Sequence record: MK327933.1
Reading direction: 5' to 3' (one strand)
Length of the DNA: 64,000 nucleotides
Origin: Escherichia phage vB_EcoM_G2285
In this document: positions 4,068-46,350 of the stretch, piece after piece
How the letters are laid out: each line of letters starts with the position of its first letter
Numbering within the stretch: position 1 is the first letter of the stretch
Notes under the pieces: generated by a model
Told to the model about the DNA's origin: nothing
What the model saw: only the letters and a program-made list of their open reading frames with translations
Database searches by the model: none
Program-made: the position numbers and the translations under genes

Positions 4068-4112
4068 TTTAATAGGACTACTATAACATAGTCCTATAAT
4101 TGTGTAAACAGT
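4068..4112 (-). promoter_or_regulatory. PeSL-like cassette: early promoter (GTTTAC -35 / TATAGT -10) with inverted repeat ATAGGACTA..TAGTCCTAT
   Basis: Minus strand GTTTACacaattATAGGACTATGTTATAGTAGTCCTAT, followed by the 18-mer CATGAGGAGAATATTATG also found at 8533..8550. Confidence 0.6.
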
Positions 4113-5363: not shown

Positions 5364-5408
5364 TTGATAGGACTACTATAACATAGCCCTATCTTGTTGT
5401 AAACTGTT
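5364..5408 (-). promoter_or_regulatory. PeSL-like early promoter/stem-loop cassette
   Basis: gataggactactataacatagccctat followed by gtaaac (5399..5404); same architecture as 4068..4112. Confidence 0.55.
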
Positions 5409-10175: not shown

Positions 10176-10180
10176 TTGTT

Positions 10181-10222
10181 TTGATAGGACTACTATAACA
10201 TAGTCCTATAGGCTTGTATACC
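10181..10222 (-). promoter_or_regulatory. PeSL-like cassette (inverted repeat ATAGGACTA..TAGTCCTAT, weaker -35)
   Basis: ttgataggactactataacatagtcctat immediately upstream of gene start 10175. Confidence 0.5.
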
Positions 10223-10223
10223 T

Positions 10224-10499
10224 TTATTTCAAATATATTGCGTATTTTTTATAGCCACCAGGCTCGTGTCGAAGACCTTTATCATTCGCAAAACGTTGAA
10301 TGTTATTGAACTGATTTTCATCAAGTTCGGATGTGTCAAATATGAAAAAGTTTCGTTTGTTACCAAGCGTGATATGCGGAGTTAAGTCAATGTTATACAA
10401 ATTAAGAATATCAGCAATAACCTGTTTGGCCGCTTTGTTAATTTTCACACCAGACGATTCTGAGATGAATTCGTTGAAAGTTTTCATTTTAGGTTCCAT
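10224..10499 (-). CDS. internal-protein-like protein with CTS (MKTFNEFISE)
   Basis: ORF track; CTS motif begins at second ATG (10487); hyperplastic position next to 57B. Confidence 0.55.
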   Translation of the reverse strand: MEPKMKTFNEFISESSGVKINKAAKQVIADILNLYNIDLTPHITLGNKRNFFIFDTSELDENQFNNIQRFANDKGLRHEPGGYKKYAIYLK

Positions 10500-10507
10500 T
10501 TGGTTGT

Positions 10508-10550
10508 TTTGATAGGACTACTATAACATAGTCCTATCATGTTGTAAACT
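10508..10550 (-). promoter_or_regulatory. PeSL-like early promoter/stem-loop cassette
   Basis: gataggactactataacatagtcctat plus gtaaac at 10544..10549, overlapping stop of upstream gene. Confidence 0.55.
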
Positions 10551-10883: not shown

Positions 10884-10926
10884 TTGATAGGACTACTATA
10901 ACATAGCCCTATAACATTGTAAACTG
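10884..10926 (-). promoter_or_regulatory. PeSL-like early promoter/stem-loop cassette
   Basis: gataggactactataacatagccctat plus gtaaac at 10919..10924. Confidence 0.55.
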
Positions 10927-41478: not shown

Positions 41479-43047
41479 ATGACTACTATCAAAACTAAAG
41501 CTCAGCTCGTAGACAAATGGAAAGAACTGCTGGAAGGTGAAGGCCTGCCGGAAATCGCTAATAGCAAGCAGGCTATTATCGCTAAAATCTTCGAAAACCA
41601 GGAAAAAGATTTCGAAGTATCCCCTGAATATAAAGACGAGAAAATCGCTCAGGCATTTGGTTCTTTCTTGACCGAAGCTGAAATTGGTGGTGACCATGGT
41701 TATAATGCTCAGAACATCGCAGCGGGTCAAACCTCTGGTGCAGTAACCCAAATTGGGCCGGCAGTTATGGGTATGGTTCGTCGTGCTATTCCTAATCTGA
41801 TCGCTTTTGATATTTGTGGTGTTCAGCCTATGAACAGCCCTACCGGTCAGGTATTTGCTCTCCGTGCAGTATATGGTAAAGACCCTATCGCTGCCGGCGC
41901 TAAAGAAGCTTTCCATCCGATGTATGCTCCAGACGCGATGTTCTCTGGTCAGGGTGCTGCTAAGAAATTCCCAGCTCTGGCTGCTAGCACACAAACCACT
42001 GTAGGTGATATCTATACTCACTTCTTCCAGGAAACTGGTACTGTATATCTGCAAGCTTCTGTTCAAGTAACAATCGATGCTGGTGCGACTGATGCTGCTA
42101 AATTAGATGCCGAAGTTAAGAAACAAATGGAAGCTGGTGCACTGGTAGAAATCGCTGAAGGTATGGCTACTTCTATCGCTGAACTCCAGGAAGGTTTCAA
42201 CGGTTCTACCGATAACCCATGGAATGAAATGGGCTTCCGTATCGATAAACAAGTTATCGAAGCTAAATCTCGCCAGCTGAAAGCTGCTTACTCTATCGAA
42301 TTAGCACAAGACCTCCGTGCAGTACACGGTATGGATGCTGACGCTGAACTGAGCGGTATTCTGGCTACAGAAATTATGCTAGAAATCAACCGTGAAGTTG
42401 TTGATTGGATTAACTACTCGGCACAGGTTGGTAAATCTGGTATGACCCTGACTCCGGGTTCTAAAGCTGGTGTATTTGACTTCCAGGACCCGATTGATAT
42501 CCGTGGTGCTCGTTGGGCCGGTGAAAGCTTTAAATCTCTGTTGTTCCAGATTGATAAAGAAGCAGTTGAAATTGCTCGTCAAACCGGTCGTGGTGAAGGT
42601 AACTTCATTATCGCTTCCCGTAACGTAGTTAACGTACTGGCTTCAGTTGATACTGGTATTTCTTACGCTGCACAGGGTCTGGCTTCTGGTTTTAATACCG
42701 ACACTACTAAGTCTGTATTTGCCGGTGTACTTGGTGGTAAATACCGCGTATACATCGACCAGTATGCTAAACAGGATTACTTCACCGTTGGTTACAAAGG
42801 CGCTAACGAAATGGATGCAGGTATTTACTATGCTCCTTACGTTGCACTTACCCCACTGCGTGGTTCCGATCCTAAGAACTTCCAGCCGGTAATGGGCTTT
42901 AAAACTCGTTACGGTATCGGTGTTAACCCGTTTGCTGAAAGTTCCCTGCAGGCTCCAGGTGCTCGCATCCAGTCCGGTATGCCGTCTATCCTGAACAGCC
43001 TTGGTAAGAACGCTTACTTTAGACGTGTATATGTAAAAGGCATCTAA
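41479..43047 (+). CDS. 23: major capsid protein gp23
   Basis: 522 aa; near-identical to T4 gp23. Confidence 0.97.
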   Translation: MTTIKTKAQLVDKWKELLEGEGLPEIANSKQAIIAKIFENQEKDFEVSPEYKDEKIAQAFGSFLTEAEIGGDHGYNAQNIAAGQTSGAVTQIGPAVMGMVRRAIPNLIAFDICGVQPMNSPTGQVFALRAVYGKDPIAAGAKEAFHPMYAPDAMFSGQGAAKKFPALAASTQTTVGDIYTHFFQETGTVYLQASVQVTIDAGATDAAKLDAEVKKQMEAGALVEIAEGMATSIAELQEGFNGSTDNPWNEMGFRIDKQVIEAKSRQLKAAYSIELAQDLRAVHGMDADAELSGILATEIMLEINREVVDWINYSAQVGKSGMTLTPGSKAGVFDFQDPIDIRGARWAGESFKSLLFQIDKEAVEIARQTGRGEGNFIIASRNVVNVLASVDTGISYAAQGLASGFNTDTTKSVFAGVLGGKYRVYIDQYAKQDYFTVGYKGANEMDAGIYYAPYVALTPLRGSDPKNFQPVMGFKTRYGIGVNPFAESSLQAPGARIQSGMPSILNSLGKNAYFRRVYVKGI

Positions 43048-43071
43048 TCTTAATTGATTAAATCTTATTTT

Positions 43072-43098
43072 GGGAGACTTCGGTCTCCCATTTTTGGT
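43072..43098 (+). terminator. rho-independent terminator after gene 23
   Basis: GGGAGAC-TTCG-GTCTCCC hairpin followed by ATTTTTGGTTTTATTT. Confidence 0.75.
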
Positions 43099-43099
43099 T

Positions 43100-43369
43100 T
43101 TATTTCTGTGCAATTTCGATGTAAGTTTTCAAAATATTTTGCCAATTAGGCATACCTTCTTGGACATATGCTGGAGAACAGTCTTTGTTTTTGAATGATG
43201 CAAGTTTATCAGTGGCCCAATAACCTTTAGCTCGAGCTTCAGAATCAACTTTCATCCATACTTTGTTGAAGGCGTTACCATTAACTTTTGCACCATATTT
43301 TTCTACTAACTTAACCGCTTCAGCTTCCAGAACTTTTAAAGTATCTCTTAAGAAACGTGCTTTAGTCAT
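43100..43369 (-). CDS. hypothetical protein (89 aa), early-type gene inserted between 23 and 24
   Basis: ORF track; opposite orientation to capsid genes; SD GAGGAG and own early promoter cassette. Confidence 0.55.
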   Translation of the reverse strand: MTKARFLRDTLKVLEAEAVKLVEKYGAKVNGNAFNKVWMKVDSEARAKGYWATDKLASFKNKDCSPAYVQEGMPNWQNILKTYIEIAQK

Positions 43370-43394
43370 TTTGTTTACTCCTCTGTAGTTGATA

Positions 43395-43429
43395 AGTCTA
43401 TAGTATCACATACCAAATACGTTGTAAAC
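43395..43429 (-). promoter_or_regulatory. early promoter cassette (GTTTAC -35, TACTAT -10) for 43100..43369
   Basis: Minus strand GTTTACaacgtatttggtatgtgaTACTATagacttatcaac; element shared with 8184..8205. Confidence 0.55.
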
Positions 43430-43435
43430 AATCTT

Positions 43436-43443
43436 TATAAATA
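43436..43443 (+). promoter_or_regulatory. late promoter TATAAATA for gene 24
   Basis: Exact TATAAATA 27 nt upstream of gene 24 ATG. Confidence 0.65.
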
Positions 43444-43470: not shown

Positions 43471-44754
43471 ATGAGTAAAATCCAAAAATTATTGCGTGAA
43501 TCTACAACGTCTACTAGCAACTCAATTGGTCGCCCAAATCTCGTTGCTTTGACTCGCGCTACGACTAAATTAATATATTCTGACATTGTAGCAACACAAA
43601 GAACTAATCAACCTGTTGCTGCTTTTTATGGTATCAAATATCTTAACCCAGACAATGAATTTACATTTAAAACTGGTGCTACTTATGCTGGCGAAGTTGG
43701 ATATGTAGACCGAGAAAAAATTACTGAACTCACAGAAGAATCAAAAGTCACACTAAATAAAGGTGATTTTTTCAAATATAATAATATCGTTTATAAGGTG
43801 TTAGAAGATACACCATTTGCAGATATTCGAGAAAGTGATCTAGAATTAGCTCTTCAGATTGCAGTCGTTCATTTAAAGGTACGGTTATTTTCAGATGCAG
43901 CGGTAACAAGCAAATTTGAAAGCTCTGATAGCGAAATTTCTGATGCAAGATTCCAGATTAATAAATGGCAAACTTCAGTCAAATCTCGTAAACTTAAAAC
44001 CGGCCTCACGGTTGAATTAGCGCAAGATTTGGAAGCGAATGGATTTGATGCCCCTAACTTCTTAGAGGATTTGCTTGCTACTGAAATGGCTGATGAAATT
44101 AATAAAGATATTCTTCAGTCTTTAATTACTGTATCGAAACGTTATAAAGTTACTGGAATTACTGACACCGGATTTATTGACTTGAGCTATGCATCCGCTC
44201 CAGAAGCAGGTCGTTCATTATATCGAATGGTGTGTGAAATGGTATCACACATTCAAAAAGAGACAACTTATACTGCAACGTTTTGTGTAGCCTCAGCTCG
44301 TGCAGCTGCTATTCTTGCTGCTTCTGGTTGGTTAAAACATAAGCCAGAAGATGACAAGTATCTTTCACAAAATGCTTATGGATTCTTGGCAAATGGATTA
44401 CCTCTTTACTGCGATACCAACAGTCCATTAGATTATGTTATTGTGGGTGTTGTAGAAAATATCGGCGAAAAAGAAATTGTAGGGTCCATCTTTTATGCTC
44501 CATACACTGAAGGAGTAGATTTAGATGACCCGGAACATGTCGGTGCTTTTAAAGTTGTAGTTGATCCAGAAAGCTTGCAACCGTCTATCGGATTATTGGT
44601 TAGATATGCTTTATCAGCAAATCCTTACACAGTAGCAAAAGATGAAAAAGAAGCGAGAATAATTGATGGCGGGGACATGGATAAAATGGCAGGACGTTCA
44701 GACTTGTCTGTTTTACTCGGTGTTAAGCTACCAAAAATTATCATTGATGAATAA
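43471..44754 (+). CDS. 24: capsid vertex protein gp24
   Basis: 427 aa, same length as T4 gp24; gp23 paralog. Confidence 0.95.
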   Translation: MSKIQKLLRESTTSTSNSIGRPNLVALTRATTKLIYSDIVATQRTNQPVAAFYGIKYLNPDNEFTFKTGATYAGEVGYVDREKITELTEESKVTLNKGDFFKYNNIVYKVLEDTPFADIRESDLELALQIAVVHLKVRLFSDAAVTSKFESSDSEISDARFQINKWQTSVKSRKLKTGLTVELAQDLEANGFDAPNFLEDLLATEMADEINKDILQSLITVSKRYKVTGITDTGFIDLSYASAPEAGRSLYRMVCEMVSHIQKETTYTATFCVASARAAAILAASGWLKHKPEDDKYLSQNAYGFLANGLPLYCDTNSPLDYVIVGVVENIGEKEIVGSIFYAPYTEGVDLDDPEHVGAFKVVVDPESLQPSIGLLVRYALSANPYTVAKDEKEARIIDGGDMDKMAGRSDLSVLLGVKLPKIIIDE

Positions 44755-46153: not shown

Positions 46154-46350
46154 TTCTTCACCTTTTTGTTAATCAAACGTTTACGGTATACAACTTTTTC
46201 TTTTGCTTTAAACTTTGACCGAGCTATCTCGGCTTTAGTCCATAGTAATCCAACTTCTTTAGGTTGTAAACCAATTTTTTGAGCAATTTCTACGAATGAA
46301 AATCCCGCCTCATGTAATGTATAAACTTCAACTTCAGCTCTCATAATCAA
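46150..46350 (-). CDS. hypothetical basic protein (66 aa), possible helix-turn-helix
   Basis: ORF track; Lys/Arg-rich C-terminus. Confidence 0.45.
   Translation of the reverse strand: MIMRAEVEVYTLHEAGFSFVEIAQKIGLQPKEVGLLWTKAEIARSKFKAKEKVVYRKRLINKKVKK

Follow-up and report, generated by a model that had tools for sequence, protein, structure and literature searches.

The window analyzed here, a 64-kb stretch of DNA from Escherichia phage vB_EcoM_G2285, belongs to a Mosigvirus, that is, an RB69-like T-even phage. The feature of interest lies in the spacer between capsid genes 23 and 24, and a 441-bp query placed over it matched 144 phage records at 90%–99% identity, nearly all of them from Mosigvirus phages of Escherichia or Shigella. 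The match to PhAPEC2 was 99.1% identical, and across the whole interval between the end of gene 23 and the beginning of gene 24, the identity to that phage is ∼99%. In PhAPEC2, genes 21, 22, and 23 are followed by a terminator, by a hypothetical protein on the minus strand ("similar to RB69ORF188c"), and by gene 24, beyond which rnlB, 24.2, 24.3, and hoc are found on the minus strand. The genes flanking the hypothetical protein are annotated as major capsid protein and head vertex protein, and the layout of the open reading frames (ORFs) in the window agrees with this gene order. The elements of the locus are as follows.

41479–43047, plus strand: gene 23, major capsid protein, a 522-aa ORF forming the left flank of the slot (PhAPEC2 annotation).
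43071–43100, plus strand: intrinsic terminator of gene 23, a hairpin (43071–43090) and a T-run (terminator scan, folding energy).
43100–43369, minus strand: the 89-aa ORF, MTKARFLRDTLKV... (ORF list); member of phrog_6003 and orthologue of RB69ORF188c/189c, PhAPEC2_170, and JS98 orf173.
43378–43383, minus strand: Shine-Dalgarno sequence GAGGAG, 8 nt 5′ of the ATG of the ORF (sequence inspection).
43400–43429, minus strand: T-even early-type sigma-70 promoter of the 89-aa ORF (motif, matrix, homology to RB69 Pe:109605).
43436–43443, plus strand: late promoter of gene 24, TATAAATA (sequence inspection; RB69 Pl:109573).
43471–44754, plus strand: gene 24, capsid vertex protein, a 427-aa ORF with its ATG at 43471, forming the right flank of the slot (PhAPEC2 annotation).

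A first-pass annotation of this DNA had placed a minus-strand ORF of 89 aa in the interval bounded by the terminator of gene 23 and the late promoter of gene 24, and every element was found where it had been assigned. The ORF converges with gene 23 on a common hairpin and diverges from gene 24. The hairpin, GGGAGAC-UUCG-GUCUCCC, has an 8-bp stem and a UUCG loop, with a folding energy of −16.8 kcal/mol (z −4.3) when read as the plus strand and −13.5 kcal/mol (z −4.9) as the minus strand, and the stop codon of the ORF (43100–43102) abuts the T-run of the terminator. In the direction of the ORF, the sequence after the hairpin is AAAAUAAGAUUU and contains no U-run; it is therefore uncertain whether the ORF transcript terminates here, and there may be some read-through antisense to gene 23. 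At the other end, the late promoter TATAAATA precedes the ATG of gene 24 by 27 nt, within the ∼20–30 nt expected of a gp55-dependent T4 late promoter. It lies 6 nt past the −35 hexamer of the divergent early promoter and so falls within the A/T-rich upstream (UP-element) zone of the latter.

The promoter of the ORF consists of a −35 hexamer GTTTAC (43424–43429), an 18-nt spacer, a TGn extended −10 (43407–43408), and a −10 hexamer TACTAT (43400–43405), followed by a conserved region, AGACTTATCAA at 43389–43399, that is common to the other early promoters of the window. Both the arrangement GTTTAC-N18-TACTAT and the Shine-Dalgarno GAGGAG had been pointed out previously and were confirmed in the sequence. 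The sequence characteristics of a T-even early promoter are all present: a −35 GTTTAC, a spacer of ∼17–18 nt, a −10 in which TAnnnT places A at −11 and T at −7, extended similarity outside the hexamers, and a position just 5′ of the ORF in leftward orientation. Beyond the hexamers, the early promoters of the window share an A-rich upstream region, a TG before the −10, and the sequence (A/T)G(A/T)C(C/T)TATCAA after it, and a GAGGAG-type Shine-Dalgarno sequence is also found after the others.

The motif GTTTAC-N16-19-TAYWAT occurs seven times in the window, always on the minus strand, compared with 0.38 occurrences expected from shuffled sequences. A position weight matrix was built on nine other early promoters of the window, with the site of the 89-aa ORF left out. 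This matrix scored the omitted site at 33 bits, rank 10 of ∼128,000 positions, against a background of −56 ± 13.5 and a top non-promoter position of 3.7. The motif counts and the leave-one-out matrix thus place the promoter in the early class and uphold the earlier view of an early-type gene within a late module; early-class sites are otherwise located at 1–11 kb and at 58.7 kb, and this one alone lies in the late head-gene block. The accompanying description of the promoter as "PeSL-like" holds as far as the early class is concerned, but if PeSL denotes the promoters in which a 9-bp inverted repeat overlaps the −10, it does not apply, since the repeat is absent here. Promoter activity and early expression of the ORF are predictions from the sequence, and no transcript data for any Mosigvirus were found in the literature.

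Several other promoter-like sites in the window deserve mention in their own right. An early promoter at 4072–4097 carries a perfect 9-bp inverted repeat (ATAGGACTA, 8 nt, TAGTCCTAT) over its −10 TATAGT, and similar inverted repeats overlapping the −10 are present at about 5375–5404, 10520–10549, and 10895–10924; in this subclass of early promoters, the repeat could have an operator-like role. Another promoter site with a high score is located at 10176–10235 on the minus strand. A second GTTTAC-N18-TACTAT, at 46242–46271 on the minus strand within gene 24.3, scored only about −2 with the matrix and probably reflects a fortuitous similarity confined to the hexamers.

Searches with the 89-aa protein by tblastn returned about 218 phage records, 216 of which cover at least 80% of the query in a single match. 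The protein belongs to phrog_6003 over its full length (E 2.7e-44, residues 1–89 on profile positions 1–90 of 90), and the alleles keep a length of 83–93 aa down to ∼30% identity. The ratio dN/dS (Nei-Gojobori) was 0.08 for the window against PhAPEC2, 0.03 for JS98 against EP01, and 0.13 for JS98 against LF82-5, with values of 0.09–0.13 for more distant pairs of alleles. An AlphaFold2 model calculated from a 19-sequence family alignment has a mean pLDDT of 93.1 and a pTM of 0.78. Taken together, the dN/dS values of 0.03–0.13, the constancy of length, and the confident model indicate that the ORF is a real coding gene under purifying selection. The reservation attached to the original proposal, that the ORF might be absent from or unconserved in all relatives, is thereby removed.

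The predicted fold comprises three helices (residues 3–25, 31–48, and 76–88) and a β-hairpin (strands 52–60 and 66–70). Seven positions are invariant in the family (M1, K3, F6, G31, N32, N35, and Q70), with N30 nearly so, and the resulting N-G-N-x-x-N motif is located at the turn into helix 2. The protein is basic, with a pI of 9.5, and the pI is 9.2–9.9 in 18 of the 19 family members. It is 98.9% identical to PhAPEC2_170, and the exact protein of the window is found in phage AV118, the other record being that of the source phage vB_EcoM_G2285. At position 64, the window allele has a cysteine (NKDCS; codon 43178–43180) where most Mosigvirus alleles have glycine (NKDGS). A search of all ORFs of the window with the family profile revealed no paralogues, and all database names for the protein are either "hypothetical" or "uncharacterized."

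Homology searching and structure prediction, which had been put forward as checks, yielded membership in phrog_6003 and a confident fold, with no informative profile or structure match. Pfam, NCBIfam, and PADLOC profiles gave subthreshold noise only (DUF4859, DUF5380, and others). DUF4859 scored 15.1 bits (E 0.022), below its gathering threshold of 22.6 bits, and just 3 of the 19 family members had any match to it. Neither a profile nor a structural similarity to known anti-defense or defense families was detected for the protein, and the searches likewise connected it with no described family of effectors, DNA-binding proteins, or enzymes. A Foldseek search of the PDB with the predicted model found nothing at E ≤ 0.001, the sole match in a BFVD structure search was a member of the family itself, and a sequence profile search of the PDB found nothing below E 0.2. 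Identity with a Seg/GIY-YIG homing endonuclease was considered and rejected: neither the ORF nor any of the 19 family members has a GIY-YIG or other nuclease match in Pfam, and the ORF has 89 aa compared with 223 aa for SegD. An exhaustive HMMER profile search of 1.8 billion representative proteins returned only eight hits, which indicates that phrog_6003 is a small, phage-restricted family. The only hit outside the family was a 655-aa repeat protein (P0013), in which the short motif W.T.KLA.Y.GKNG.PAY is repeated four times; the match was set aside as a chance similarity inflated by the repeats. We take this protein to be cytochrome-b5-like.

The occupancy of the space between genes 23 and 24 varies among T4-like phages. 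Of the 1,496 records that match the region, 60 were sampled at even spacing; among these, the empty slot was the commonest state, found in most Tequatrovirus and in T4-like phages of Klebsiella, Enterobacter, Salmonella, Erwinia, and Kosakonia. In RB6, for example, the spacer is 83 bp long, with the late promoter and terminator as its only elements and no early-promoter signal. The ORF alone is present in Mosigvirus, JS98, VR20, and EP01. In Dhakavirus IME341 and Mosigvirus LF82-5, the ORF is accompanied by a segD-like endonuclease gene, a clear SegD homologue 3 nt past the ORF. T4 has segD alone, the homing endonuclease gene that the first-pass annotation had named for this slot. Its suggestion of a recurrent insertion site also agrees with the compared 23–24 regions, in which the empty, ORF, ORF plus endonuclease, and segD-only states were all seen.

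In Dhakavirus (JS98 orf173) and Gaprivervirus (VR20_187), the ORF occupies the same slot in the same orientation, with alleles of 30%–37% identity, and two metagenomic T4-like contigs also carry relatives of it between genes 23 and 24. The promoter architecture is the same in JS98, VR20, EP01, and IME341 and in two further loci, L013 and L015. In JS98, the promoter reads TATTTATAAAAGTT-GTTTACA-N17-TACTAT-AGACCTATCAAAACATGAGGAG and in VR20 GTTTACA-N17-CATAAT, and a TATTTATAAA-N-GTTTAC junction is kept in all loci with an occupied slot. The hairpin of VR20 has T-runs on both sides. In Dhakavirus (JS98, L002 1–2399), Gaprivervirus, and a related metagenomic contig (L003, L015), the slot is adjoined by two tandem copies of gene 24 (24a and 24b); the window and T4 have one copy of this gene.

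Comparison of the cassette with its flanks revealed different histories. In the Tequatrovirus EP01 (locus L009, 997–1330), the flanks are 96%–98% identical to those of RB6, whose slot is empty. The promoter and ORF of EP01 are 97% identical to those of Dhakavirus JS98, to which the flanks in genes 23 and 24 are only 85% and 70% identical. The EP01 cassette is evidently the product of a cross-genus transfer without an endonuclease. In LF82-5 (locus L008, 1006–1942), the Mosigvirus flanks are 96%–97% identical to the window, and the Mosigvirus promoter extends up to the ribosome-binding site, where it gives way to a Dhakavirus-type ORF and a segD-like GIY-YIG gene, 91% identical to IME341. This pattern probably reflects co-conversion accompanying the transfer of the endonuclease, with replacement of the resident allele. 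The point of insertion is visible in the comparison of JS98 with IME341, which are identical through the promoter and the ORF until its last three codons. The endonuclease gene of IME341, ∼680 bp, is inserted cleanly at the 3′ end of the ORF, and the two sequences rejoin at TATAGAAACAAGAATGGGAGACC. With its own promoter and hairpin, its presence/absence polymorphism, and a history unlike that of its flanks, the cassette has the attributes of a moron-like mobile accessory element, and EP01 and LF82-5 indicate that whole cassettes have moved between genera.

The comparison also bears on segD of T4. According to a review, searches had found no segD-specific promoter, and levels of the segD transcript may be vanishingly low (Edgell et al., 2010; PMC2988022). 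Directly upstream of segD (NC_000866; locus L012, 6238–6297, minus strand), T4 has the sequence ATTTACA-N17-TATTAT with a TGn extended −10. It lies beside the gene 24 late promoter, in a position equivalent to that of the Mosigvirus early promoter. When the matrix trained on Mosigvirus promoters was run over the 8-kb T4 locus, the top score, 21 bits, fell exactly there, and the best score on the opposite strand was −7.8. This suggests that, in T4, segD is preceded by a slightly degenerate version of the early promoter seen in Mosigvirus. A T4 omics paper makes no mention of segD.

The reading frame is disrupted in some phages. The RB69 reference (AY303349; locus L005, 1437–1677) has two separate frames, ORF189c and ORF188c, in its place, the result of a +1 insertion, at which a short stretch of sequence is also divergent, and of a −1 deletion. 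Either RB69 carries a real pseudogene in the laboratory strain or the frameshifts are old sequencing errors. Phages mogra and 310Ecol104PP, as well as a few contigs, have shortened versions of 51–64 aa. Judged by the RB69 frameshifts and the shortened versions elsewhere, the gene is dispensable at least sometimes.

Members of the family are also found beyond the T-even slot, with 29%–37% identity to the window protein. They occur in an Acinetobacter phage classified in the Vequintavirinae, in two rV5-like contigs, in a siphovirus-like contig, and in a viral contig of higher G+C content, the last being the sole new context from a scan of IMG/VR. In these genomes, the homologues lie among small genes of unknown function on the same strand, and one such array contains a T7 gp0.6-like early gene. 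A neighbor-joining tree has three roughly equidistant clades, corresponding to the Mosigvirus type, the Dhakavirus/Gaprivervirus type, and the non-T-even sequences. This topology is compatible with either an old, fast-diverging resident of the slot or separate acquisitions.

On balance, the feature is probably a self-contained early-gene cassette in the polymorphic 23/24 slot of Mosigvirus, and its product an early accessory protein. The cassette would comprise the 89-aa ORF together with its T-even early promoter and strong ribosome-binding site and would end at the hairpin that also serves gene 23. Directly after infection, host sigma-70 RNA polymerase, still unmodified, would fire the GTTTAC/TGnTACTAT promoter, leftward and against the capsid genes, and the mRNA would be translated into a small, soluble, basic protein of three helices and a β-hairpin. 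Later, the early promoters would be shut off by Alt/Mod ADP-ribosylation and AsiA, and the gp55-dependent TATAAATA promoter would then drive gene 24. These steps follow established T4 biology. The early-promoter consensus is that of Nolan et al. (2006). As to what the protein does, the chances seem about even that it is a nonessential early effector binding the host or a component of host defense. This assignment is based on its predicted timing, its size, dispensability, and mobility, and its soluble and basic nature.

A wider and more speculative reading is that phrog_6003 is a new family of early effectors directed against the host or its defenses, with an orphan three-helix and β-hairpin fold. 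The complete promoter-gene-hairpin cassette would travel between T-even genera and serve as a landing pad for SegD-type endonucleases, and T4 would have kept only the early promoter of the cassette, fused to segD. We hold this to be possible and, on the whole, doubtful; if it is true, segD would be transcribed early and would not be the promoterless gene described in the literature.

The same arrangement could instead act at the level of RNA, with read-through transcripts antisense to gene 23 damping premature or leaky expression of the capsid gene and the ORF of secondary importance. Read-through is plausible given that AAAAUAAGAUUU, with no U-run, comes after the minus-strand hairpin, and the position of the promoter is kept even in T4, where the cargo is different. 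Such a role is nevertheless unlikely, as the protein is under strong purifying selection, its model folds confidently, and it has homologues in unrelated phages far from capsid genes. Moreover, most of the sampled T4-like phages have an empty slot without any promoter, and in VR20, a transcript of this kind would be halted by the hairpin, which has a T-run on either side. The close association with endonucleases raises another prospect, that the ORF is a partner of a SegD-type enzyme, either as an immunity or helper factor or as the carrier of its target site, and is maintained by the endonuclease. In IME341 and LF82-5, a segD-like GIY-YIG gene lies 3 nt downstream in the same transcription unit, the site of insertion lies at the final codons of the ORF, and the replacement in LF82-5 involved the ORF allele and the endonuclease together. 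Against this, no endonuclease is present at the ORF loci of the window, PhAPEC2, JS98, VR20, or EP01, segD is present in T4 without the ORF, and the homologues in the rV5-like and siphovirus-like contigs have no neighboring endonuclease. The association looks like the landing of an endonuclease in an expressed intergenic site rather than a functional pairing, which we consider distinctly unlikely.

The location between genes 23 and 24, conserved in three genera, is the sole support for a role in head assembly or as a late structural protein tied to that position. The opposite orientation and the early-class promoter argue against it, as does the absence of the ORF from most of the sampled T4-like phages that have the same capsid genes. 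The homologues elsewhere lie in arrays of small genes with no Pfam match to capsid or head genes among the neighbors, and in PhAPEC2, the flanking genes are noted as "structural virion protein" and the ORF is not. A structural function is accordingly very improbable. That the ORF is a product of chance or a decaying, unexpressed remnant might be argued from the frameshifts in the RB69 reference and from the shortened versions in a few phages. This explanation is effectively refuted by conservation: dN/dS is 0.03–0.13, nearly all of the phage records (216/218) cover at least 80% of the protein in one tblastn match, and conservation across genera extends to the promoter and the ribosome-binding site as well as the ORF. 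The account retained is thus that of an early accessory gene in a mobile cassette.

As a gene, the 89-aa ORF is one more uncharacterized accessory ORF of T-even phages, ordinary and largely annotated already. The spacer in which it lies is a hot spot of cassette exchange, and each of its four states is represented among sequenced phages; it provides a convenient natural system for following the arrival of homing endonucleases at intergenic sites and the drag that they exert on neighboring genes. For T4 segD, the comparison supplies a candidate promoter for a gene that a review described as promoterless. The protein, with its compact, high-confidence orphan fold and predicted to be early, basic, and dispensable, is a reasonable candidate for anti-defense or host-takeover screens.

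The feature has been catalogued before. The supplement of Nolan et al. (2006; PMC1524935) lists for RB69 the HMM-predicted early promoter Pe:109605, the late promoter Pl:109573, and the terminator "23-><-RB69ORF188c." The picture drawn in the first pass is therefore correct and is not new. A literature search by the names RB69ORF188c and phrog_6003 found no papers. Emp, an early protein of Mosigvirus AV110 described in a 2026 preprint, was considered as a possible prior description; a search of the preprint by terms showed no mention of capsid genes or of a size of 89 aa, and Emp is probably a different gene.

RB69ORF188c/189c and the ORF of the window share the locus, promoter, terminator, and gene, and the RB69 region aligns base for base with the window except for the two frameshifts, scattered substitutions, and the divergent patch at the first indel. 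The reading frame split by +1 and −1 in RB69 is, however, intact in the window. The segD locus of T4 resembles the window in the slot used, in the reversed orientation, and in having TATAAATA back-to-back with a sigma-70-type promoter, followed by a cargo and a hairpin shared with gene 23. The cargo itself is unrelated, as the ORF of the window has no GIY-YIG domain or nuclease signature. IME341 and LF82-5 differ from T4 in having the ORF as well, which precedes the segD-like gene. Like phage morons, the cassette has its own promoter, ends at a terminator hairpin, is polymorphic for presence or absence, and is transferred independently of its flanks. Classical morons, in contrast, are prophage genes expressed in lysogens, whereas this cassette resides in a strictly lytic phage and is wired into the early program. 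Among the T4-like genomes compared by Nolan et al. (2006; PMC1524935), ∼90% of novel ORFs were found among early or middle genes and were almost always co-oriented with their neighbors; the 89-aa ORF is an exception in both location and orientation.
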